This document shows, in pieces, positions 4,168 through 26,032 of a stretch of DNA of 27,566 nucleotides. How positions within the stretch are numbered: the stretch's first letter is position 1; each line of letters opens with the position of its first letter. Position numbers and translations under genes: made by a program. Under the pieces are notes generated by a model. That model was not told where the DNA came from. It saw only the letters and a list, made by a program, of their open reading frames with translations, and searched no databases. The stretch comes from a virus. Taxonomy: Duplodnaviria; Caudoviricetes. The stretch is taken from IMG/VR virus record IMGVR_UViG_3300031949_000140, positions 1 through 27,566 of that record. One strand, written 5' to 3'.

Positions 4168-4502
4168 CTCGTTCGTGGGTTGCGTGTTGTGGTACGCCAA
4201 TGCTTGCACGCAGGATACAGCAATCCGTGGCGTGCGTCAAGTGTGGATGTCGCCATGGTTGGGTCGATCTTTGCGTGGTTGAGTGCTGGTTGTCGGGCGA
4301 TCGTTCTGTGAATGTTGAGATTTGTTCGTGGTTGTGGTTGTCGTATATGTTTCAGTAGAGAGGTGCATATATGGTTATTGCAAAGGTAATAAATAGACAT
4401 GTATAGGTTTGAAGCAGTTATATGCGACTCTCGTATGTCCTGATTTACATATATGACAACCACAACTAGTAAATGAATGTGATGGTGTTTTATGGGACAT
4501 TT

Positions 4503-4637
4503 TCAACGTTTCAGCGGGTATCTTTCAACGTTCCCACATTCTTATCAACGTTTAGGCGGTGATGAACGGCGTATTAGAGATCGAACTACGTCGTATTAGA
4601 GGTCACGCGGTGTCATATTAGAGATCGAACCACGACG
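4503..4637. repeat. Phased direct repeats (iteron/operator-like)
   Basis: TCAACGTT at 4503, 4525, 4545; TATTAGAG at 4572, 4594, 4616 (exact 22-bp period; copies 1 and 3 extend to TATTAGAGATCGAACYACG). Confidence 0.8.
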
Positions 4638-4650
4638 TTGACATTGCACC

Positions 4651-4679
4651 TTGACAATGTTGAGACGTTATCGTATGAT
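4651..4679 (+). promoter_or_regulatory. Sigma70-type promoter
   Basis: TTGACA (4651-4656), 17 bp spacer, TATGAT (4674-4679); SD AAGGAGG before ATG 4718. Confidence 0.8.
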
Positions 4680-4717
4680 ATGCAAAGAAAGCAAGAAGAA
4701 AGCGAAAAGGAGGCAAA

Positions 4718-5281: not shown

Positions 5282-5498
5282 TGTTTCGGATGGTCAGCCA
5301 ATTGTTATCAACTGGAGACAGCAGTACTATAAGATGGCGTGTTGTGACTGCAACTTGGTTCACAAGGTCTACTTCGACGTGAAAGGCAGCAGGTTGACCA
5401 TGCGTGTTTATCGCAGTAACCGCTCCACTAATGCATTGCGGCACCACCGTGGAGTACCCATTGCGGAGCAGACGAAGCAGACGAAGCAGACGACATGA
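5259..5498 (+). CDS. Small phage protein with CCDCxLVH (putative Zn-binding) motif
   Basis: SD GGAGG then ATG 5259; MACCDCNLVH motif; ATGA overlap with the next gene. Confidence 0.7.
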   Translation: MARKLYPDVSDGQPIVINWRQQYYKMACCDCNLVHKVYFDVKGSRLTMRVYRSNRSTNALRHHRGVPIAEQTKQTKQTT

Positions 5499-6047: not shown

Positions 6048-6364
6048 AAGTGGCCACTGGTTTTGTGGTTTCCATGGAGACACTTACGGAGACACATGTA
6101 TATCTACATATATATCATATATGTATATGTATCTTATCTGTATTTCTCCCGAACGCTGAATTATGTAATGTGTAAACGCATGTGTGCGCACACACGCAAC
6201 GTGCAACGTGTGTTGTGCATGATGTCGTGCGATGTGTGCACGTCACGCGCAACGCGCGATGTCGCAACGATGCATGACGTGTGACGTGTGTATTGCATGA
6301 TTAATTTTGTGCATCCATGCAACACGCACTGCTTGATCCCCCCTCGTTGCAACATCACACAACA

Positions 6365-6428
6365 TGACGAATGTCATACGAAACACATGACATTCGTCAC
6401 ATGACACACACGTACGATGTGATATGAT
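6365..6428 (+). promoter_or_regulatory. Early promoter with upstream inverted-repeat operator
   Basis: Perfect 13-bp IR TGACGAATGTCAT-N9-ATGACATTCGTCA (6365-6399); -35-like ATGACA 6401-6406; extended -10 TG-A-TATGAT 6420-6428. Confidence 0.7.
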
Positions 6429-6513
6429 GTGTGCATAACGAAACACATCACGCAACACACGACGTAAACGTGTGAAAATCAAAACGTGATGTACAAACGA
6501 CAACAAACACAAC

Positions 6514-6822
6514 ATGTCAAACAACACGACGAAACGCGATGTTACATCACACGACAACATGACAACATTCAACGTCAAATGTCGCAACGTTGCGCACGCG
6601 CAACGCATCATCGAATTGTTGCACACGAACGATGTTGAAACGTTCGTGTATCGTGCACAATACGATGCCGAACGTGCGAACATCGTCAACACGTACAAAC
6701 GCATGTTGCACGACATCGCAATCGCGCAAATCAAATCGCGCAACGATGATGACAACAACGTCGTTGACGCGATGAAACGTGACGTGATCGCGTATGCACG
6801 CGACAACAACATCACGATGTAA
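6514..6822 (+). CDS. Early protein, VYR-family paralogue 1 (no Gly/Pro/Trp)
   Basis: Aligns without gaps over ~55 aa with 7864-8154 (FNV...V..AQ.II...VYRA.Y..E...L....IA..K); flanked by promoter and terminator; start may be ATG 6514 or 6559. Confidence 0.8.
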   Translation: MSNNTTKRDVTSHDNMTTFNVKCRNVAHAQRIIELLHTNDVETFVYRAQYDAERANIVNTYKRMLHDIAIAQIKSRNDDDNNVVDAMKRDVIAYARDNNITM

Positions 6823-6845
6823 CACGCGCACATACAATTGAATAC

Positions 6846-6892
6846 GACAACGTAAACACACATCGACAACACGATGTGTGTTTTGTGTTGTC
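6846..6892 (+). terminator. Probable intrinsic terminator
   Basis: AAACACACATCG-acaaca-CGATGTGTGTTT perfect 12-bp stem (6854-6883) running into a T-rich tail; outer GACAAC/GTTGTC pairing. Confidence 0.7.
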
Positions 6893-7000
6893 ACACGCAT
6901 CACGCGCATCACGCACACGCACACGCACACATTGCGCGTGCACGCGCATCAACGCGACATAACGCATGTTCACAAATTCACAATCGAACAAATGATTCAG

Positions 7001-7064
7001 GACGAATGTCATATAAAACACATGACGTTTATCACGTTCAATTATGCGTCATTCGTTATACAAT
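7001..7064 (+). promoter_or_regulatory. Second copy of the operator/promoter; probably yields a leaderless mRNA
   Basis: GACGAATGTCATATAAAACACATGACGTTTATCAC closely matches 6366-6400; -10 TACAAT at 7059-7064 lies 6 nt before ATG 7071. Confidence 0.6.
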
Positions 7065-7070
7065 ACGTGC

Positions 7071-7388
7071 ATGAACGCGCACGTTTCATCGAACGACAAC
7101 GACACGCGCACGCGCAAACGCAAACGTGTTAACGTTGCATTCATGCAACGCATCGCACATGATGACGCGCAACACAACGCATCACGCGATGACACGTTGC
7201 GTGCAACGTTCACATGCAAATGTGATGTGTGTTCACACACGTATGACGCGAATTATGTGCGCGTGTTTGCACACGTGCGCGCAGTTGACAAACGTCAACA
7301 TGCAATGTGTGAACGTTGTTTACGCATTGCGCGTGATGACAACGACGTTAACACGTTCATGCGTGTTAACGGTTTGATGTATGCGTGA
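7071..7388 (+). CDS. Early protein with putative Zn finger (CxCxxC...CxxC)
   Basis: FTCKCDVCSH...AMCERC; no Pro or Trp and a single Gly at the zone edge; ATG sits at the predicted TSS. Confidence 0.65.
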   Translation: MNAHVSSNDNDTRTRKRKRVNVAFMQRIAHDDAQHNASRDDTLRATFTCKCDVCSHTYDANYVRVFAHVRAVDKRQHAMCERCLRIARDDNDVNTFMRVNGLMYA

Positions 7389-7416
7389 AGTTTCAACACA
7401 CACGAGGAGGTGTGAA

Positions 7417-7821
7417 GTGATATACATCAGCAAGAACGGCAAGGTGGACAGGTCGCGCACGTTCGAGGACCATGCGGCACGGCGCGATTGGCATCAAGCG
7501 AGTGGGCACACGTGGTCAACGGAAGGTTGGTGTTGGGTGGACGCTGACGGCAACAAGTATCGCACGTTCGTCGAACGCGACGAGAAGTGGTACGTCGTCA
7601 AGTACTTCAGTGAAGACAAGCGCAACAGCGTGATGCAAGATCGGTACGAGAAGGGGGAGTTGCAGCACGCAAAGGGGGACGCGCGAGCAGGAAGCGCAGA
7701 CGGTCGCGCCGTAGTGTATCGCGCGTCGGTGCAGTTGGGTCGCGTGTGGTATGATACGGTGTGCGAGTATCGCAACGGCGTATACAAGTCGTTGTCGCGC
7801 AGCGGCAAGTGCAGGAGTTAG
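7417..7821 (+). CDS. Hypothetical early protein (no Pro)
   Basis: Strong SD GAGGAGG 7404-7410 then GTG 7417. Confidence 0.75.
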   Translation: MIYISKNGKVDRSRTFEDHAARRDWHQASGHTWSTEGWCWVDADGNKYRTFVERDEKWYVVKYFSEDKRNSVMQDRYEKGELQHAKGDARAGSADGRAVVYRASVQLGRVWYDTVCEYRNGVYKSLSRSGKCRS

Positions 7822-7863
7822 CGTGCAATTCGGCACAACACACAACATGCAAAGGAGATTGCA

Positions 7864-8154
7864 ATGAAGAAAGTATTGGACAGCACGTTCGAGGGCAAGA
7901 ACTTCAACGTCAGCGCGCCCGACGTTGAAACGGCGCAGGAGATCATCAAGTTCGCCGCGGAACTCGGCGCGTCGGTTGTCGTGTATCGCGCCGAGTACAA
8001 GAAGGAAGACCAGGCACAGCGGCGTGTGGTGAGAGGCCTGCTCGAGCGCAGCACCATCGCTGCCTTGAAGGGTGACGACGCGAAAGCGGACGCGTTGAAG
8101 AACGAGGCGAAGGCGAAGGCGGAAGAGTACGGCATCAACCTCATCGGTCGGTAG
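7864..8154 (+). CDS. Early protein, VYR-family paralogue 2
   Basis: SD AAGGAG; similarity to 6514-6822 and 10254-10550. Confidence 0.85.
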   Translation: MKKVLDSTFEGKNFNVSAPDVETAQEIIKFAAELGASVVVYRAEYKKEDQAQRRVVRGLLERSTIAALKGDDAKADALKNEAKAKAEEYGINLIGR

Positions 8155-8223
8155 TGTCAGTCCTCCACCCGCCCACACAACGACCACCACGTGGTCCACA
8201 TACGCGAAACGGTGCTCACGCCG

Positions 8224-8296
8224 CGACACAAAGCGAAACGCAGCGCCGTAGCGAGGCAACGCAGCACGCGACCTTGCCTGACGATGCAAACGTGCG
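8224..8296 (+). ncRNA. Probable type II hammerhead ribozyme
   Basis: GAAA 8235-8238; stem III ACG/CGT; cleavage triplet GTA 8248-8250; stem I GCGAGG/CCTTGC; CTGACGA 8278-8284; short stem II GC/GC; pseudoknot GCACG(8264-8268)/CGTGC(8291-8295); intergenic. Confidence 0.7.
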
Positions 8297-8321
8297 ACAC
8301 ACAACACACAAGGAGACTACG

Positions 8322-8627
8322 ATGTCACAGTTCAAGCGCTCGCGCAAAGGTTGGTTGGTTATCGCTGCCGCTGCCTGTGCAATCGCGGGTTGCAGTGGTG
8401 GCGGCACGAAGACGGCGCAAGTCACGAGCGAACCCACCGTGCGTTACAGCACGCGCAAGGTGTACGCGGACGGCGCACCAGTGCCGTTGAACGATGTCGA
8501 TTGTCCCGAGGACTACACTCGGTCAGTGCTCGATGCGTGTGTGTCGCCTAGCGGCACGCCCGTGATGAGTGCTGCCGACGTGGCGTGGCGCGTGTCCGTT
8601 GGTCGCCTACAGTTCAAGGACAAGTAG
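8322..8627 (+). CDS. Lipoprotein
   Basis: SD AAGGAG; basic N-terminus, hydrophobic stretch and lipobox IAG-C (MSQFKRSRKGWLVIAAAACAIAGCSGGG). Confidence 0.75.
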   Translation: MSQFKRSRKGWLVIAAAACAIAGCSGGGTKTAQVTSEPTVRYSTRKVYADGAPVPLNDVDCPEDYTRSVLDACVSPSGTPVMSAADVAWRVSVGRLQFKDK

Positions 8628-8640
8628 TCGCTTCACACGC

Positions 8641-8799
8641 GAGCATGGGGCAGTGCGGTGTAGTGAGGGTTGCCGAGCGCGCCCACATCAATACCTGCCC
8701 CTGCTTCCTTCCCTGATGCCCGCACCGATATATTCTAGTAACCTAGGTAAGTGCAGAGCGAGTTCACGCCTCGCCGGTGCGGACATGAGGAAAGGAGGC
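8641..8799 (+). promoter_or_regulatory. Structured RNA leader that can sequester the SD of the 8808 gene
   Basis: Long imperfect stem 8703-8727/8775-8799 includes AGGAGG; upstream stem GGGGCAG/CTGCCCC. Confidence 0.5.
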
Positions 8800-8807
8800 A
8801 ATTGACA

Positions 8808-9149
8808 ATGGCGACGATAAGACGCAAACTGCGCTACCCACCCGACCACATCACCAATGAACACGTACCCGACACACTCGCAGACGCAATCATGCGTAAC
8901 GTACCCGACGAACCCAACACTGCGTCCGCGTGGCTGCTGCACGACGACGCGCCCGTGTCCTCATGTGTGGATGGGCACCGCAACTCGCCCAGCACACAAC
9001 CAGTCGAGGCGTTCTCGTCTGGGGTGGAAGCAGTTCCGCTGCGCGGGCGCCATCTGCCTGTGCAACCTGTGAACGTGAGTGGACTTGTCTTAGTGCACCA
9101 TGCACATACAGTGTGTGGTGTGGTTGAACAACCCAGGAGGTTACAGTGA
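8808..9149 (+). CDS. Hypothetical protein
   Basis: SD AAAGGAGG before ATG 8808; stop overlaps the next GTG start. Confidence 0.55.
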   Translation: MATIRRKLRYPPDHITNEHVPDTLADAIMRNVPDEPNTASAWLLHDDAPVSSCVDGHRNSPSTQPVEAFSSGVEAVPLRGRHLPVQPVNVSGLVLVHHAHTVCGVVEQPRRLQ

Positions 9150-9400
9150 GTTCATTTGGTGAAGATGTCAACGCTGCCCGCTACGAGGCAATCGAACTTG
9201 CCCACCAGTTGAGCAAGCAGTGCCCGCAGTGTGAGTCAACGGGCAAGTCGTTGGTTGAAGTCCGTTTGGCACTGCCTCTGCCCAACGTGAGCCGCGCACC
9301 GACTCCAGTCATCACGGTCATCTTTGACACCGAGACGGGCGTGGCACCAGATGATGCGTGGATGTACTGCCACGGATGCCGAACACTCTACAAGTTGTAA
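9146..9400 (+). CDS. Small Zn-ribbon protein
   Basis: SD AGGAGG; CPQC...CHGC. Confidence 0.7.
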   Translation: MSSFGEDVNAARYEAIELAHQLSKQCPQCESTGKSLVEVRLALPLPNVSRAPTPVITVIFDTETGVAPDDAWMYCHGCRTLYKL

Positions 9401-9809: not shown

Positions 9810-10111
9810 CACCCACGCAGAAGGCACAGCGATTGCTTCGTCTGTTGGAGGTCACGGACAAAGCAGCGAAGGCCATTGACAGTGGTGCGACCGTGAGCAT
9901 CTCTGTGTTTGGGTTGAACACACCCGATGGCAACCGCGAGTTGGCGCAAGCACTTCTCTTCACTGAAGGTGCTGCACAACACACCGGCGGCGGCACCTCA
10001 TGGGTCAACGCCCCGCTTGATGGGGTTGGTCCACACGTCACCGTGTTCTACGAGGACGCGGAGCCTGCTCCTGTTCCTGCTCCCGAGGAGGACGACGAGA
10101 TACCATTCTAA
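9806..10111 (+). CDS. Hypothetical protein with SSB-like acidic C-terminal tip (EEDDEIPF)
   Basis: SD AAGGAGG, ATG 9806; C-terminus PAPVPAPEEDDEIPF. Confidence 0.75.
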   Translation: MTPTQKAQRLLRLLEVTDKAAKAIDSGATVSISVFGLNTPDGNRELAQALLFTEGAAQHTGGGTSWVNAPLDGVGPHVTVFYEDAEPAPVPAPEEDDEIPF

Positions 10112-10125
10112 ACCCGTCAACGTCG

Positions 10126-10186
10126 AGATGCGATCTTTGAATCGTTGAGATCGCATCTTGCCATCGTTGCACGCTTGTTGTATGAT
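10126..10186 (+). promoter_or_regulatory. Sigma70-type promoter with abutting inverted repeat
   Basis: IR AGATGCGATCT-N11-AGATCGCATCT (10126-10158); TTGCCA 10158-10163, 17 bp spacer, TATGAT 10181-10186. Confidence 0.7.
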
Positions 10187-10253
10187 AAACGTGCACGAAT
10201 CAACCCGCCGTTGCGCGTATCGCGCACGAGCACCACACAAGGAGAGTGAAACC

Positions 10254-10550
10254 ATGGCAGGCAGTAGCGTAATCAAGATCACGAGCGTTGATCAGGTTGG
10301 CGACGTGACTCGCATCGCAGTGAAGTTCCCCGACGAGGCCTCCGTCCGCAAGGCCCTCGTCCAGTCCCTCCTGGACAACGGCTGCGAGTTGACGGTCTAC
10401 CGCGGTGCGTCCTCGTACAACCCCGAGAAGGCAGCGGCCGCGCGTGCCACTCAGAAGGCACTGGTCGAGGCAGCGTTGCAGTCGATGAAGACCGGCCGCC
10501 CGGCCACCGACTTCCTTTCACCTGAACTGGCGGCGAAGATCAGCGGCTGA
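10254..10550 (+). CDS. VYR-family paralogue 3
   Basis: SD AAGGAG; LLDNGCELTVYRGASSYNPEKA resembles LHTNDVETFVYRAQYDAERA of 6514-6822. Confidence 0.8.
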   Translation: MAGSSVIKITSVDQVGDVTRIAVKFPDEASVRKALVQSLLDNGCELTVYRGASSYNPEKAAAARATQKALVEAALQSMKTGRPATDFLSPELAAKISG

Positions 10551-10562
10551 TCGCAGGCGCAC

Positions 10563-10596
10563 GAAGCCAGCGTTGTTAGGGACCAGCGCTGGCTTC
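10563..10596 (+). terminator. Hairpin after 10254-10550 (possible terminator or processing site)
   Basis: GAAGCCAGCG / CGCTGGCTTC perfect 10-bp stem; weak U-tract. Confidence 0.5.
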
Positions 10597-10632
10597 AACT
10601 TGCTCTCATCCATAACAATTCTGGAGGAAACC

Positions 10633-11055
10633 ATGGAAGACTTGACACCCAACGATGATGGCCTCCCCAACGAGGTCAACTATTTCGAGGCAGCGTTGTA
10701 CCTGGGTCACTCCGGTACGACGCGCGTGCAACACCTCTTGCGTGTGGGCATTCTTGCGCGTGGCACCACATCCAAGACCATCACCCGCGAGTCTCTGCTC
10801 ATCTACGCTGTGGGTCGCCGCCAGCCCAACACAGACGCCTTGTGGTATAAGGTGCAGTTGACGCAGGAGCAGTCGGCGGTGTTGAATAACCCGCTCGATT
10901 ACGCTACGTCCCAAGTGATGGAGGCGTTGGAGGGGCTCGCCTTCGAGCGCTTGCACAAGTACGACGACGCTGCAAAGGAGCGCCGCCGGCGCCGTGAGTT
11001 CAAGGATGCAGGCGTGCTGCAAGGGCGCTTGCCGGAGGGGTTCAAACATGACTGA
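10633..11055 (+). CDS. Excisionase/MerR-like HTH DNA-binding protein
   Basis: SD GGAGGA; NYFEAALYLGHSGTTRVQHLLRVGIL...ITRESL pattern. Confidence 0.6.
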   Translation: MEDLTPNDDGLPNEVNYFEAALYLGHSGTTRVQHLLRVGILARGTTSKTITRESLLIYAVGRRQPNTDALWYKVQLTQEQSAVLNNPLDYATSQVMEALEGLAFERLHKYDDAAKERRRRREFKDAGVLQGRLPEGFKHD

Positions 11056-11377
11056 GATCGTTGTCAAGCACAGAGCACCGGCCCTGCATTACTGGGCTGA
11101 TGCACCCGTGCACCGTGACTACCTACGTGTGCCACACCGCCACCTCTTCACTTACGTTGTGCGTCTCGAAGTGCACCACGGTGACCGAGAAGTTGAGTTC
11201 CATGACGTGCTGCAGTGGTTGGCTGCGCGCGTGTGCGTTGATTGGGGCGGGCGGTCGTGCGAGAACATCGCGGCTGACCTTCGCATGGCGATGCTGAGCC
11301 GCCAGCCCAACCACGTAAGGTGTACCGTCGAGGTGTGGGAGGACGACGAGTGTGGCGCTGTGGTGAGCGGTGACTAA
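11048..11377 (+). CDS. dpdL: QueD-paralogous T-fold protein, DpdL-like (predicted 7-carboxy-7-deazaguanine decarboxylase)
   Basis: HYWADAP...YLRVPHRHLF...HGDREVEF...SCENIA...VWEDDECGA; the LxxxHRHxF motif is recalled as the DpdL signature (needs an HMM check); queD/queE/folE/dpdA present and no queC. Confidence 0.6.
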   Translation: MTEIVVKHRAPALHYWADAPVHRDYLRVPHRHLFTYVVRLEVHHGDREVEFHDVLQWLAARVCVDWGGRSCENIAADLRMAMLSRQPNHVRCTVEVWEDDECGAVVSGD

Positions 11378-19346: not shown

Positions 19347-19793
19347 ATGTACGCAAAGATAACACGAGAATACACGTTCGACGCTGCCCACCTGCTGCCA
19401 GGCTACAACGGCAAGTGTGCTCACCTGCACGGACACACGTATCGACTGCTCGTGCAAGTATCAGGCGAGGTGAGCGACGAAGTTGGCAACAGTGATGACG
19501 CCATGGTCATGGACTTCGCTGACCTTGACGCCATCGTCAAACCACTTGTCTCCAAACTCGACCACCGCTTCATTGCAAAAGGTGACGAGTGGCCGTGCAA
19601 CGCTGCACGACTGGCCGGCGTGGATGACGTGTTCTACATGGGCCAGCGGACCACTGCAGAGAACATCGCCGGGTGGTTTGCTCACTGGGTCAGCAAAGGA
19701 TTGTCGACTATGGCTCCCAGCAGCGAGTTCGACACGAACTGCATCGTGTTTGAGACACCACGCAGCAGCGCCAGCGTGCGGTGGGAGGGTTGA
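19347..19793 (+). CDS. queD: 6-carboxy-5,6,7,8-tetrahydropterin synthase
   Basis: FDAAHLL...CAHLHGHTY, MVMDF, LDH, TTAENIA, FETP. Confidence 0.93.
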   Translation: MYAKITREYTFDAAHLLPGYNGKCAHLHGHTYRLLVQVSGEVSDEVGNSDDAMVMDFADLDAIVKPLVSKLDHRFIAKGDEWPCNAARLAGVDDVFYMGQRTTAENIAGWFAHWVSKGLSTMAPSSEFDTNCIVFETPRSSASVRWEG

Positions 19794-19794
19794 C

Positions 19795-20520
19795 ATGCAC
19801 ACGTACAACATCAACGAGGTCTTCACGTCGTTCCAGGGAGAGGGTGTGCACTGTGGTGAGCAAGCAACATTCATCCGCGCACAGGGTTGTCCAGTGGGCT
19901 GCCCGTGGTGCGACAGTGGACCGAACTATCACCCGGACGAACCGCTCTACGACGCCGTGGGGCAACGTGTGGAGGGCGTCAGCCACGTTCCGTCTGCAGG
20001 CAACACGTGGCCAGGCGTGGGTGGCGCAAAGATGACCGAGTACGATCTCTGTGCCCGCATACCCACTGACATACCACGCATTGTCATCACCGGTGGCGAA
20101 CCAGCGCTGCAGGACTGGGACGACTTCATCAACTGCTGGGAGTCCTACGTCGGGCACCATCGCACGGTCATTGCGTTGGAGACAAGCGGCCAGTACGAGT
20201 GGCGTGGCAGTCGCTGGCCTGACTGGGTGACCGTGTCACCGAAGTGGTCCGGCAACCCATGGCACGTGGAAGGCGTGTACTGGACCTACGTGGACGAGTT
20301 GAAGTACGTGGTGGACGACCGCTTCGATGACTCCATCGTGGCCGAGCACCTTCGCCAACTGCGTGAACTATGTCCGCAACGCGGCATGCCATACATCGTG
20401 CTCATGCCTGAAGGTGCTCCGCCGAACCAAGGGACGACCGAGCGCACGTTGTCGTTCCTCAAGAAGCACCACGACTGGCGTGCGGGACCACGACTGCAAT
20501 ACGACTGGAGGGTGAAGTGA
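19795..20520 (+). CDS. queE: 7-carboxy-7-deazaguanine synthase (radical SAM)
   Basis: EVFTSFQGEG, FIRAQGCPVGCPWCD, VITGGEP, ETSG, TVSPK. Confidence 0.93.
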   Translation: MHTYNINEVFTSFQGEGVHCGEQATFIRAQGCPVGCPWCDSGPNYHPDEPLYDAVGQRVEGVSHVPSAGNTWPGVGGAKMTEYDLCARIPTDIPRIVITGGEPALQDWDDFINCWESYVGHHRTVIALETSGQYEWRGSRWPDWVTVSPKWSGNPWHVEGVYWTYVDELKYVVDDRFDDSIVAEHLRQLRELCPQRGMPYIVLMPEGAPPNQGTTERTLSFLKKHHDWRAGPRLQYDWRVK

Positions 20521-21092
20521 AACCACTAATAGAGCCGCATGTCGCCATTGGGTATGCACTGACGAAAATCTTCGGCGCAACGTGGGCCGAGGGTCAGCAT
20601 GCACGAGACACAGCACAACGCATACTCAGGTACTGGCAGGCACTTGTCCCACCTCCAGTTGCGTCATTGGACAAGGCGTTCACCACCTTCAAGAATGAAC
20701 CACGTGCAAAGCAGATGGTGGTGTGCTGTAACATTCCATTTCACTCTGCCTGCGCCCACCACCTCCTGCCGTTCGAGGGTCATGTCCACATCGGCTATAC
20801 ACCGGATGCTGTGCTCTGTGGGCTGTCGAAGTTCCCACGTGCCGTGAACCACTTCGCACAGCGTCCACAGATCCAAGAGTTGATGGGGCGTGAACTGGCT
20901 GACTACCTCTATGCCAAACTGGAACCACACGGTCTGGGCATACGCGTAGTTGCCGTACATACCTGCACCACCTGCAGAGGCGTTGTTGCACCAGGCACCC
21001 TGATGGTCACAGACATCATGCTTGGCGACTTTCAGCGTTACGAAACCCTCAAGCAGGAGTTCCTATCCATGATTCGAGAAAGGACACCGTGA
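20517..21092 (+). CDS. folE: GTP cyclohydrolase I
   Basis: SACAHHLLPFEG, GLSKFPR, RPQIQE, HTCTTCRGV. Confidence 0.93.
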   Translation: MKPLIEPHVAIGYALTKIFGATWAEGQHARDTAQRILRYWQALVPPPVASLDKAFTTFKNEPRAKQMVVCCNIPFHSACAHHLLPFEGHVHIGYTPDAVLCGLSKFPRAVNHFAQRPQIQELMGRELADYLYAKLEPHGLGIRVVAVHTCTTCRGVVAPGTLMVTDIMLGDFQRYETLKQEFLSMIRERTP

Positions 21093-21511
21093 TGTCGTAC
21101 ACACCTGACGAGAAGGCGCTCATCGAGCGCGAGATGGCTGCATTCTGGACGAACTACACCGGACTGCTCAACGATGCCAAGCACATTGCAGAAGAACGCG
21201 GTAAAGAGTCCGGTGACAACACGCCTCCCTGGCACAAGATCTCCATGCGTGATGGCGTCATCACACTGCTGCGAATGAAGATCGAGCGCCTGGTTGACTG
21301 TACACCGGATAAGTGCATCGAGGAGTGCAAGGACATCATCAACTACGCGGGCTACCTCGCCGCATACACGTTGATGGTGAACAACATCCACCCGCCGGTT
21401 GTCACCAGCCAGGGCACACCGCCTGCAGTGAAGTTAGAGCCTGTAGACCAGACACCACATGCAAGTATCACTGCTGCACAGGCACTGGCTGCAAGAGAGG
21501 TGAAGAAATGA
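21089..21511 (+). CDS. Helical protein, DUF1599/nucleotide-modification-associated-like
   Basis: LRMKIERL...EECKDIINYA pattern, located inside the modification cluster. Confidence 0.5.
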   Translation: MMSYTPDEKALIEREMAAFWTNYTGLLNDAKHIAEERGKESGDNTPPWHKISMRDGVITLLRMKIERLVDCTPDKCIEECKDIINYAGYLAAYTLMVNNIHPPVVTSQGTPPAVKLEPVDQTPHASITAAQALAAREVKK

Positions 21512-22266
21512 AACTGGCCATCGTTGCGTCCCCGTCGACAGTGAAGTACGCCCGCCCCCTCGCCGGTGGTTACCACATGGCGCTGGCACACCTCATCCGT
21601 GACGACACCAGTTATCGTGAGTGGTACAACACGCGGGCGAGTTGGATGAACAGCGAAGTCATCCTTGACAACGGAGCGGCCGAGTTCGGCGTGGCAATGC
21701 GACCAGAGGAACTCCTCAGGATTGTTCGTGACTTCAAGCCAACTGTGTGGGTGATGCCTGATGTCATCATGGAGACCGCAGCCACGATGTGGTACTTCCA
21801 CATGACGCTGACGCTGAAGGACTTGCCACTGCCATTCATGGTGGTTCCGCAGGGGCGCAACTTCTCTGAGTGGTTGGACTGCTTCAACTCCATGAGAGAT
21901 GCACTAACTGAGCGCAACATGACCGCGTGGCTAGGCATCAGCAAGTTCTGCTTGCGCCACACCGAGCGGCTGACCATCCTGGAGATGCTCGCAGGCAACC
22001 TGCCTTCGTGCTTCACACACGTCCACCTCCTCGGTCTAGAAGATCCGCAGGAACTGTTGAAGGCTGCACAGATGTACCCATGGGTGCATGGATGCGATAC
22101 ATCTACACCCATCGCCATGGGACTCAAAGGCTTGCGCTGTCAGGACTACACTACCAAGATCGACATGGATTGGAGAGAGCATCACATCGACGCGGGTGAA
22201 GATGCTCTCATCCGCAACAACGTAAACTACCTCGTGGAGTTGGCACGTGGATACCAGGCTAAATAA
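21508..22266 (+). CDS. dpdA: DNA guanine transglycosylase (TGT fold), DpdA-like
   Basis: ILDNGAAE, MPDV, VVPQG, HLLG, GCDTSTP motifs; adjacent to queD-queE-folE; ATG 21508 coupled to the previous stop. Confidence 0.75.
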   Translation: MKLAIVASPSTVKYARPLAGGYHMALAHLIRDDTSYREWYNTRASWMNSEVILDNGAAEFGVAMRPEELLRIVRDFKPTVWVMPDVIMETAATMWYFHMTLTLKDLPLPFMVVPQGRNFSEWLDCFNSMRDALTERNMTAWLGISKFCLRHTERLTILEMLAGNLPSCFTHVHLLGLEDPQELLKAAQMYPWVHGCDTSTPIAMGLKGLRCQDYTTKIDMDWREHHIDAGEDALIRNNVNYLVELARGYQAK

Positions 22267-23539: not shown

Positions 23540-26032
23540 GTGAACAAACATCCACTCGCCAACTGCACAGGCTGCCCGTACAAGGACCGTCCCTACGTTT
23601 CATCCGAGTTCAACCCTGGTGCAACATACAACGTAGTGGGCGAGTCTCCTGGGCGTGATGAGGCGTTCAACACTCACACACCCTTCACAGGCCCAAGCGG
23701 TGACCTCCTCTGGAAGACAATGGCACAGGCCGGCGTCAAGCGTTCACAGTGCAATGTGCTCAACGTCATTGCCTGTGCCCCTCCCGAGGCTGATGCTCCT
23801 GAGAAGCAACAACAGTTCGCCCCAAAGGGCCAATACGACGTTGACCAGACACGTGCAACCAAAGACGCAGAGACTGTTGCTTCCGAGAAGGCACAGGCAG
23901 CACAGTGTTGCAGTGGTCGTTTGCACGACGAGTTGTCGTGTACTACTGGCAACATCCTGCTACTGGGGAGGATAGCGCAGTATGCACTGTTGCCAGAGTT
24001 GGAGGGTGCAAAGAACACGCGCCTGTGCAGATGGGTGGAGCATAACGGACGCAATTACATCTACACATGGCACCCAGCGCATGTCTTACGCGCACCTGTT
24101 GAAGCACGCACCATGATGAACGGCATCCAGAAATACGTGCGCGTGCCTCCTGGACGCAAGTTGCCACCTGTGCCGGAACATCACATCGTGGTCTCACCAG
24201 GCCACCTGCACGGCCTGTGCAGCCTGTGGGAGCAGCGTAGGGCTTTGCAACTTTGCATTGACACCGAGACGGACCAGATAGACTGGCAGAACGACGACAT
24301 CCTGTGCATGGGCATCTACGACGGAATTAACATCTATGTAGTGCCCAAGTATGCGTTTGACTCGTTCAAGTATGGGTTGCCAGTGTGGGACGAGTGGTAT
24401 AAAGCACTTCACAGGTTCTTCTCCATTGACGCTGTATGGATCATGCAGAACGGAAAGTACGACCAACGCTTTCTTCGTGGCCAGTATGGTTTGCCCGCAC
24501 GCTGCACGTGGGACACCATGCTTGGTCACTACGCATGGGACGAGCGCAAAGGCACGCATGACCTCAAAGGCTTGTGTGCGTTCTTTTTCGATGTGGAAGA
24601 CTGGGAACTGCAGATGGCCGAGTGGATTGGCACATCACATGCCCACAATGCACGGTACAGCATCATACCTGCAGATAACCTTCATGCTTACGTTGCACAG
24701 GATGTGTTCTACGATTGGCATCTGAAGCAGGGGTTGGAGAAGTTGTTGAAGCGCGAAGGACTGCTTGAGTGGCCGCTACTCAACCTGCTCATGCCTGCAA
24801 ACGAAGTCCTGCTGGAAGCGGAGATCTTTGGTGCATATGTGGACACCGAGGCGCTCGATGAACTGTGGGTGCAGTGGCTGTTATGGCAGTGGGACGTGCG
24901 CGATGAGATAGAGGCAATGACGAATGGGCTAGTTGACAACCCAGCATCCACCGTGCAGGTGTCGCACTATGTATACGACATACTCGGGCTGAAGTTGCAG
25001 AGGCACCTGCCCAAGAAGTCACGCTGTACGGACGACGAGGTGATTGCACAACTCTTCGTGGAACTTGAAGAAGCAGGCAAGAAGGCACTGCACGCCTACG
25101 AGTTTCTGGTTACGCTTCGCCAGTTCCGTCGCATACAGAAAATGCGTGGCTCCTACGTGGAGCAAATCAAGAACTTCATGGATGAGCACAGGCGCGTGCA
25201 TCCTGAGTTCCTAGTGCACGGCACGGAGACTGGCCGTATCTCTGCACGCAACCCTGCCATCCAAACCATTCCACGCCCCAATGACCGAGAAGCAGGTCAG
25301 ATGGGCTCACACATCCGCAACCTGTTCATTGCACCACCTGGCTGCAAGTTGGTCAACGTGGACTATTCACAGTGCGAACTGCGGTTCGCTGCTCACGTGT
25401 CCGGTGACACCTTCCTACGTGAAGCGTACATTGCTGGGCGCGATCTGCACAGTGAGGTAACAAAGGGTGTGTTCGGGGAGGACTACACCGACGAGCAACG
25501 TCAGCGCATCAAGGTGTTTAACTTCCAGTTCCTCTATGGTGCAAAGCCAGAGGCGAAGTCGTATGCACGCGGTGAGTCCATTCCGCTGGATGTTGCCAAG
25601 CGCTTCGTTGACGGTTACAAAGCAACGATGGGAGGACTGCTGGTATGGCGCAACAACCAGGAACGCTTGATGCACAGTCAGCACTTCGTGAAGTCGATCT
25701 TCGGACGCCGACGAATGTTGCCAGTAATTACGATTGGCAACCGTGAAGAGGCGCGCAAGGTATCAATCAACGCGCCCATTCAGGGTGGTGCATCGGATCT
25801 CACACTCTTGGCAGCAATTGACATCTACAATGATCCATGGATGCGTGCAAAGGACGTGCATGTACTTCTGCCCATGCACGATAGTATTCTCCTGCAGGTG
25901 CCAACTGAGTACGCTGACGAGGTGGCAGACCGCGCGAAGCAGGTCTTCGTGGATGTGGCTGCCCGTTACATCAAAGACGTGCCATTCAAGGCGGATGCTA
26001 AGGTTGGCGACCGATGGGGAGACGTGAGATGA
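23540..26032 (+). CDS. polA: Family A DNA polymerase with N-terminal uracil-DNA-glycosylase-like domain and 3'-5' exonuclease
   Basis: UDG4-like CTGC, GESPG, PFTGPSG, HPAHVLR; exonuclease DTET, NGKYD, YVAQD; polymerase TGRIS, DYSQCELR, KVFNFQFLYG, HDSI. Confidence 0.93.
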   Translation: MNKHPLANCTGCPYKDRPYVSSEFNPGATYNVVGESPGRDEAFNTHTPFTGPSGDLLWKTMAQAGVKRSQCNVLNVIACAPPEADAPEKQQQFAPKGQYDVDQTRATKDAETVASEKAQAAQCCSGRLHDELSCTTGNILLLGRIAQYALLPELEGAKNTRLCRWVEHNGRNYIYTWHPAHVLRAPVEARTMMNGIQKYVRVPPGRKLPPVPEHHIVVSPGHLHGLCSLWEQRRALQLCIDTETDQIDWQNDDILCMGIYDGINIYVVPKYAFDSFKYGLPVWDEWYKALHRFFSIDAVWIMQNGKYDQRFLRGQYGLPARCTWDTMLGHYAWDERKGTHDLKGLCAFFFDVEDWELQMAEWIGTSHAHNARYSIIPADNLHAYVAQDVFYDWHLKQGLEKLLKREGLLEWPLLNLLMPANEVLLEAEIFGAYVDTEALDELWVQWLLWQWDVRDEIEAMTNGLVDNPASTVQVSHYVYDILGLKLQRHLPKKSRCTDDEVIAQLFVELEEAGKKALHAYEFLVTLRQFRRIQKMRGSYVEQIKNFMDEHRRVHPEFLVHGTETGRISARNPAIQTIPRPNDREAGQMGSHIRNLFIAPPGCKLVNVDYSQCELRFAAHVSGDTFLREAYIAGRDLHSEVTKGVFGEDYTDEQRQRIKVFNFQFLYGAKPEAKSYARGESIPLDVAKRFVDGYKATMGGLLVWRNNQERLMHSQHFVKSIFGRRRMLPVITIGNREEARKVSINAPIQGGASDLTLLAAIDIYNDPWMRAKDVHVLLPMHDSILLQVPTEYADEVADRAKQVFVDVAARYIKDVPFKADAKVGDRWGDVR

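Follow-up and report, generated by a model that had tools for sequence, protein, structure and literature searches.

The DNA examined here, referred to below as the window, is the whole of a 27,566-nt record (IMG/VR IMGVR_UViG_3300031949_000140) and is a partial tailed-phage genome. Over about one kilobase it is almost free of AG, GG, CC and CT on both strands (tier 1). At 7389 AG and GG come back to the + strand, and CC and CT do not (tier 2). Is tier 2 the result of the amino acid make-up of the gene within it? Or, has one strand been purged of two dinucleotides, and if so is it a guanine of the template, a cytosine of the coding strand or the message itself that is under constraint? Below, RG stands for AG or GG and CY for the complementary CC or CT.

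In the window the portal and terminase genes (minus strand) are followed by a helix-turn-helix gene, by rightward small genes, and then by rightward replication genes for a helicase, an exonuclease, a primase and a family A polymerase fused to a uracil-glycosylase. The QueD, QueE, FolE and DpdA-like genes sit between the primase and the polymerase. This polymerase (23540-26032), with its N-terminal uracil-DNA glycosylase domain, is common to the clade. No terminase relatives were found in prokaryote genomes, and therefore no host has been assigned. The end of a small CxxC gene carries, at 5463-5492, a short tandem repeat with about three GCAGACGAA-like units. Inverted repeats, which are likely to be terminators or processing sites, lie between early genes at 9001-9100, 10090-10190 and 10550-10600, for example one of about 20 bp at 10125-10175.

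Contigs from a second sample are identical to the window at 7523-7840 and 7846-8107, with zero differences, and this letter-for-letter match excludes assembly error as the source of the CC/CT depletion. In a polymorphism test two of four runs were identical to the window, the other two gave only spurious matches of 33-38 nt, and no variants were seen.

Table 1. Positions of zones, signals and genes in the window. Counts are observed vs expected.
Feature	Position	Strand	Remarks
Portal, terminase genes		-
Mirror zone	6092-6344	-	RG 0 vs 22.7, CY 16 vs 27.7 (edges set after seeing the data)
Shine-Dalgarno-like GAGGGGGG	6345-6338	-	8 nt before a leftward 28-codon ORF (6329-6243)
Tier 1	6345-7388	both	RG 4 vs 102, CY 1 vs 110
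Sigma-70-type promoter-like site	6401-6428	+	ATGACA-16-TATGAT with TG extension; consensus match only
ORF 6514-6822	6514-6822	+	Tier-1 protein-coding gene; no Gly, Trp or Pro; no Shine-Dalgarno sequence
ORF 7044-7388	7044-7388	+	Likely second tier-1 gene; two CxxC pairs
Tier 2	7389-7900	+	CC/CT nearly absent on coding strand, i.e. AG/GG nearly absent on template
Shine-Dalgarno sequence	7404-7410	+	GAGGAGG; first tier-2 gene
First tier-2 gene	7417-7821	+	GTG start; 134 aa
Second gene	7864-8154	+	CY ratio 0.73
Partial zone	7901-8688	+	CY 63 vs 88.8, about 70% of expectation
DpdL-like QueD paralogue	11048-11377	+	LRVPHRHLF; phiST DpdL, E 3e-9
QueD	19347-19793	+	PF01242, E 2.5e-28
QueE-like radical SAM	19795-20520	+	phrog_2076, E 8e-25; TIGR04322 below cut-off
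FolE	20517-21092	+	PF01227, E 5.8e-43
DpdA-like DNA guanine transglycosylase	21508-22266	+	Profile and phage matches

One-strand loss of CC and CT

Tier 2 starts at the first base past the stop codon of ORF 7044-7388. The + strand of its 512 nt has 46 AG and 45 GG, that is 91 RG where 95.9 are expected, and 4 CY where 36.2 are expected. These are CC at 7470 and 7709 and CT at 7544 and 7605, with no others up to 7900. A recount agreed exactly with the earlier note on the four sites, on the Shine-Dalgarno sequence and on the first tier-2 protein having Gly and Trp and no Pro. In 5000 base shuffles the expectation was 41.2 CY and the minimum 25, and among 512-nt windows from 8201 to the end the lowest count is 40.

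The product of gene 7417-7821 contains 11 Gly, 6 Trp, 0 Pro and 3 Leu, the last all encoded by TTG. Synonymous recoding of the gene (n = 2000) gives 28.1 CC/CT for the 4 observed (z -5.5), and its CY ratio is the lowest of the 40 genes tested, the next lowest being 0.64. When its own codons were reordered 19.3 were expected, and 0/500 shuffles were as low as the gene itself. Codon choice also differs with the base that follows. Codons with a synonym end in C in 2/33 cases before a codon starting with C or T and in 45/70 before one starting with A or G (Fisher p 8e-9); in other genes the figures are 35% and 46%.

On the coding strand AG/GG are not avoided (72 vs 65.8 expected), and all ten Lys codons are AAG despite the silent alternative, so that AG is free there. 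A softer point, in raw counts, is that silent positions carry a purine in 13/28 cases before G and in 27/41 before other bases. The one-strand rule put forward in the earlier note is thus upheld by synonymous recoding, with 4 vs 28 for the template and 72 vs 66 for the coding strand. Composition and ordinary purine skew, which that note had named as a possible explanation, fail in the recoding null for CC/CT (4 vs 28.1). We regard it as confirmed that the depletion is real and selected. Palindromic restriction sites, already doubted in the note, are a poor fit because motif loss is unequal between the strands.

The constraint is specific to two steps. TC (19 vs 19.6 expected) and TT (16 vs 14) are kept in the tier-2 gene, and CA and CG are raised and take up the cytosines, C being 22% of the gene. 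Normal TC with raised CA/CG therefore speaks for a prohibition of two steps and against purine loading. All CY-containing trinucleotides drop together in tier 2. A longer hidden motif was rejected, as no trinucleotide in tier 1 stands out past the dinucleotide rule. Avoidance of UV pyrimidine dimers was ruled out because TT (16) and TC (22) are kept.

Downstream the bias does relax, as had been claimed, but in the window it does so stepwise rather than gradually (4/36, 63/89 and 93/92 observed/expected in tier 2, the partial zone and 8689-9400). The deficit of the partial zone, the boundary of which was set by eye, has a p of 0.0025, and gene 8322-8627 inside it has a CY ratio of 0.76; from 8689 the count is at background level (93 vs 92). 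Elsewhere in the window, the non-coding stretch 4200-4717 before the helix-turn-helix gene has 20 CC/CT vs 35.

Staggered zones and a second lineage

AG/GG leave the + strand at 6092 and are back at 7389, and CC/CT leave it at 6345 and begin their return near 7900. In our reading, tier 1 is where two staggered one-strand zones overlap, the + strand being clean over 6092-7388 and the - strand over 6345-7900. In the mirror zone AG/GG are off the + strand and CC/CT are partly kept, a polarity opposite to that of tier 2. The promoter-like site sits near the start of the CY-free zone. A strong leftward promoter was looked for near 7388 and none was found. On both sides of the depleted region, or desert, the sequence is ordinary within the contig, and no genome end is visible there. 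The opposite stagger of the strand-clean zones fits the direction of transcription better than the order of DNA entry.

A related virus, G001, has the same gene order (DpdA 41%, terminase 56%) and carries the pathway genes too. Its tier 1 lies in the same place (observed/expected AG 0/78, GG 1/68, CT 1/64, CC 0/58). In successive genes its template-strand ratios are 0.11, 0.27, 0.46, 0.81 and 1.15, a smooth fade, and the coding-strand ratios of the same genes are 0.89, 0.63, 0.91, 0.90 and 1.01; the second tier-2 gene is also low in coding GG (5/14.5). The desert is replicated in an independent lineage and is part of a recurring pattern. Neither inspection by eye nor a profile search shows homology between the tier-2 genes of G001 and 7417-7821, and the left overhang of G001 is only about 40 nt, with no clear mirror zone. 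Left of tier 1 the sequence is ordinary in both contigs. The ends of G001 overlap by about 215 nt, and contig ends are not virion ends. A helix-turn-helix gene of G001 (L089:13124-13741) has a CC/CT ratio of 0.59.

ORF 6514-6822 matches a tier-1 gene of G001 at 34.3 bits, with 30 shuffled controls at or below 26.2, and because of this homology tier 1 is more than a promoter field. ORF 7044-7388 has a G001 counterpart with the same position and CxxC pattern, at 23.9 bits, which is within the control range.

For the product of 7417-7821, a profile search of 1.84 billion representatives found one homologue (55%), a protein with three Leu and with one Pro, at its last residue. It has no match in Pfam, PHROG or NCBIfam, and a Foldseek search of PDB and BFVD with its model (pLDDT 67) gave nothing at E 0.001. 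The best VIA Z was 5.7, and the top Atlas score, 0.89, was to an unnamed match. Scans for related loci with DpdA or the 7417-7821 protein alone found nothing in viral contigs, and a metagenome scan returned what is apparently the window's own contig plus one chance match.

A V..VYR..Y pattern is common to 6514-6822, 7864-8154 and 10254-10550 and is also found in a G001 gene outside the desert, with members at L089:14685-15083 and L087:1279-1581. These form a small paralogous early-protein family, one copy of which lies under the both-strand ban and has no Shine-Dalgarno sequence. A search with the 6514 family gave six matches, five of them the input sequences (model pTM 0.44), and 7864-8154 had no usable Atlas match.

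Deazaguanine genes and related viruses

The DpdA-like protein falls under the cut-off of PF23859 (19.5 bits, cut-off 27; E 5e-4) and matches phrog_1279 (E 3.4e-5) and phiST CGPG_00065 (E 9e-14). Its best phage match is the 'DNA guanine transglycosylase' of Flavobacterium immuto_2-6A (E 2e-10; 27% over 94%). D54 and D197, which we take to be the TGT catalytic aspartate pair, are invariant in 12/12 aligned DpdA-like sequences. The named best matches (phiST, immuto_2-6A) are DpdA3; in a quick tree phiST is on a long branch at an open fork, apart from the window.

The motif LxxxHRHxF is that of DpdL, a proposed CDG decarboxylase (PMC10516641; this and the other papers are cited for the accessible portions of their text). 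The DpdL-like gene co-occurs with DpdA-like, FolE, QueD and QueE genes and without a QueC match, none being found in G001 (about 95% complete) or in the window (a partial contig). FolE, QueD, QueE, the DpdL motif and the DpdA-like gene, with no QueC found in G001, are the likeness to the DpdA3/DpdL (dDG) pathway of phiST (PMC10516641). That phage differs in that all its G is replaced, it has its own RNA polymerase by annotation, and it has no desert, whereas the window implies a dinucleotide context. From these genes the guanines of the window are predicted to be 7-deazaguanines, and the published scheme (PMC10516641) would make the base either 7-deazaguanine itself or the carboxy precursor. 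The late module of G001 (L088:7697-12114) contains a B12-binding radical-SAM gene and two GT1 glycosyltransferases, and its counterpart in G018 has GT2 and sulfotransferase genes.

The survey covered 34 DpdA-like virus records read whole or nearly so, with a strong desert defined as a 400-nt window with -log10 p >8; G005, G006, G013 and G056 were read in part. Four of the 34 pass, namely G001 (AG/GG/CC/CT), G018 and G038 (TG/CA) and G014 (GC), and five with G026. The last was exposed when 2,878 ORFs from 40 genomes were screened automatically. That screen serves as a lead only, since 7417-7821 was lost from it in favour of a longer antisense frame. Weaker deserts, at scan level and not codon level, are present in G014, G021, G023, G024, G027, G048, G051, G052, G053 and G059. 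Among 80 loci with up to 10 kb on each side of DpdA there is no AG/GG desert, deserts being seen only in whole records, and two distant terminase relatives have none in their examined DNA. The sister lineage G002, the nearest after G001, is about 97% complete and encodes both a DpdA-like and a DpdL-like protein. It lacks a desert, and the one low count is that of CT in its first small gene (4 vs 11).

In G026, 1,928 nt (75000-76927; L184:18000-19500, L185:1-927) are without C on the coding strand. They comprise an intact 263-aa ORF (C 0 vs 44.4, 295 G) and about 1 kb upstream of it, after which C is back at a low level for about 300 nt and then normal. This virus, for which only its own record was found and which is unreplicated, encodes a DpdA-like protein, a family B polymerase, FolE2 and QueC, and its host is probably archaeal. 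Coding CC is low and coding GG normal in small genes of G015 (0/7.0 and 1/7.2 observed/expected), in G019 (0/9.5) and in G030 (0/3.2 and 0/6.1). These three belong to one DpdA clade, and they were selected after all 16 steps had been scanned over many windows. There are thus four other DpdA-like viruses with a clean template in putative early genes, for GG in G015, G019 and G030 and for all G in G026.

The TG/CA relatives behave differently from these. In G038 gene 5937 has coding TG 0/10.4 and CA 5/7.3 and gene 8024 has TG 2/8.4, a reversed polarity, and in G018 the polarity is mixed. The deserts themselves (L156:5455-6262 in G038, L104:11050-12560 in G018) involve TG/CA, plus CG in G038. With G after a pyrimidine, this is the complement of the AG/GG rule. 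A 47-aa gene inside the G038 desert (L156:5937-6080; ESGQGLIEY) has no Pfam match, and we take its product to resemble a Flp-type pilin. GC-step deserts lie at L115:16950-17550 (G014), L322:2100-3100 (G053) and L333:4876 (G059), and in G048 a 400-nt stretch upstream of small rightward genes (L303:4326-4726) has CC 0 and GG 2.

The avoided step tracks the quick DpdA tree, with SH-aLRT values of 97 for the AG/GG pair, 97 for the TG/CA pair and 99 for the GG clade, an agreement which may be due to ancestry alone. In a set drawn by polymerase similarity, 5/15 records with a DpdA match and 0/5 without pass -log10 p 4.5, too few for significance, and a further DpdA-less record peaked at 4.1. The association of deserts with DpdA is suggestive. 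No such desert is present in phiST, BSTP5 or CAjan. In the iggy record the terminal gap (59949-60628, L150), which separates divergent genes, has GA 5/43 and TC 11/40 (observed/expected). A template tier is lacking in both iggy and CAjan.

What the template strand may be avoiding

Our leading but tentative explanation, to which we give not quite an even chance, is that a modified G at AG or GG hinders the first round of host transcription when it is on the template. The phage's DpdA-like pathway would alter G within AG/GG steps, and the incoming genome would carry the modification throughout. Host RNA polymerase would be slowed or stalled by an altered G on the strand that it copies, and the first-read genes would have been purged on the template side only. 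Tier 1 would hold promoters and transcription in both directions. An early product, for which 7417-7821 or the 6514/7864/10254 paralogues are candidates, would then lift the block and the rule would lapse; the rest of the genome would wait unharmed until it acts.

A template-only mark on G accounts for both tier 2 and the mirror zone, for the way the bias fades away from the promoter and for the viruses that share the polarity. Of the two transcription-tied agents suggested in the earlier note, modified G on the template or CY on the other strand, the first has gained from the candidate enzymes, G001, the mirror zone and the four viruses of the same polarity, but sequence does not distinguish G from opposite-strand C or from mRNA. 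Against the mechanism are the DpdA-like genomes without a desert, which are the majority and include G002, and the two TG/CA relatives that break the polarity. Unsubstituted 7-deazaG is what DpdL without QueC would predict. In vitro, two bacterial RNA polymerases tolerate this base fully, and the block by substituted G was at initiation rather than at elongation (PMC4838386). The mechanism therefore needs a carboxylated or decorated base or a more sensitive host enzyme.

The DpdA3 enzymes tested replace all G, with no dinucleotide subset, and trials of DpdA3 in E. coli are reported to have been unsuccessful (PMC10516641). CAjan (GA, GGC; PMC7544227) and iggy (GA; PMC10484667) resemble the window in having G modified in a short context, and the partial two-strand GA/TC desert of iggy between divergent genes matches its published motif. 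They differ in that the context is the 3' neighbour, the CAjan DpdA1 motifs reading this and not the 5' neighbour (PMC7544227), and in having no template-only tier. G after a purine would be a 5'-neighbour rule, which is not reported for the CAjan and iggy motifs in the accessible portions of these papers; nor was any mention found there of avoidance, promoters, transcription or the GA/TC gap (PMC7544227, PMC10484667). A literature search, with most subscription papers outside it, turned up no report of modified phages purging a motif from the template strand. The phages T7 and T5 avoid restriction sites, and their first-entering DNA is poor in them. The window is similar in that the first-expressed region has been purged of a target motif. 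It differs in that those motifs are of 4-8 bp and are lost from both strands, whereas here a two-letter, one-strand ban is strong enough to strip Pro from a protein.

A wider idea, which we consider doubtful, is that the modification acts as a transcription lock, with a lineage-specific step, in which the host first reads templates that cannot be marked and their product unlocks the rest. The locked step would be AG/GG here, whereas other DpdA-like viruses would use TG/CG, GG, GC or every G. If this is true, the banned step would be a readout of enzyme specificity from assembled sequence, and modification motifs could be inferred for uncultured viruses. A new kind of unlocking factor would then be found in 7417-7821 or in the 6514/7864 family, and such relieving proteins would be candidates for reading or transcribing modified DNA. 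Hypermodified phage DNA is mostly viewed as armour; the ban points to a cost in first-round transcription. The predictions are a modified context (G after purine), the strand on which the mark counts and a few small early proteins that should relieve the cost.

It is unlikely, in our estimate, that the modified G is instead excised by a host Dag1/Dag2-like glycosylase or a modification-dependent nuclease. Until an inhibitor had been produced, gaps in the template would stop transcription, and the DNA would break where both strands had gaps; the AG/GG context would come from DpdA or from the host enzyme, and the first kilobase would be clean on both strands and the genes after it on the template only. 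The polarity predicted is the same as for hindered transcription, the tolerance of RNA polymerase for plain 7-deazaG is sidestepped, and different hosts would explain the desert-free G002 and most DpdA phages. Dag1 and Dag2 do exert host pressure on 7-deazaguanine DNA, blocking phage in which it is full, and Dag1 nicks such DNA (bioRxiv 10.1101/2025.10.29.685425). However, in the accessible portions of that report these enzymes have no sequence context or strand rule and there is no sequence-level escape. The remaining genome would be damaged meanwhile unless entry is staged, and 72 sites are still present within 400 nt of the coding strand.

We think it improbable that the rule is one of RNA, with the first messages shunning CC/CU because of a ribonuclease, a terminator or pairing with an AG/GG-rich ribosome site. 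Such a rule predicts the loss of CY from the coding strand. Rho prefers YC, and would hit TC. In tier 2, TC and TT are kept and CA/CG raised, a ban on specific steps and not a loss of pyrimidines; the mRNA of 7417-7821 folds no more weakly than its recodings (-155.9 vs -147.8 +/- 7.5 kcal/mol, 40 recodings); and the both-strand ban of tier 1 would fit only with antisense transcription. In Bacillus, Rho avoidance is an established driver of purine bias (PMC13323073), and there too a coding-strand constraint moulds codon choice. That bias is graded, in C-over-G and T content, and extends to all genes, whereas in the window two steps are lost from the first genes and TC/TT are kept.

We give still less weight to a mark that is not the phage's deazaguanine, either a bulky group put by the host on G after purine, as by a DarT1-like enzyme, or an unseen modification of C before pyrimidine. 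DarT1 ADP-ribosylates guanines in single-stranded DNA, but for the E. coli enzyme there is no consensus motif in the accessible portions of the same paper (PMC11543638). The B12 radical-SAM gene and two glycosyltransferases of G001 count in favour of such a mark, and in sequence a mark on G and a mark on the C of the opposite strand look alike. On the other side, no DNA methyltransferase family has a Pfam match among 38 window ORFs and 29 G001 ORFs, and all strong deserts found lie in genomes with a DpdA match.

The earlier note had seen in the tiers a temporal gradient, recording the order of DNA entry with the first kilobase sensed on both strands, and this we hold to be very unlikely. DNA entry is staged in T5 and T7, and there is an ordered fade away from tier 1 in the window and in G001. 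However, there is no genome end, the sequence left of tier 1 is ordinary in both contigs, and the left flank has the opposite polarity. Amino acid make-up with ordinary purine skew can be dismissed: the lack of Pro and scarcity of Leu do lower the expected CC/CT from 48.9 to 28.1, but the recoding null, in which 4 are left against 28.1, refutes it, as do the codon junctions (p 8e-9), the normal TC and the replication in G001.
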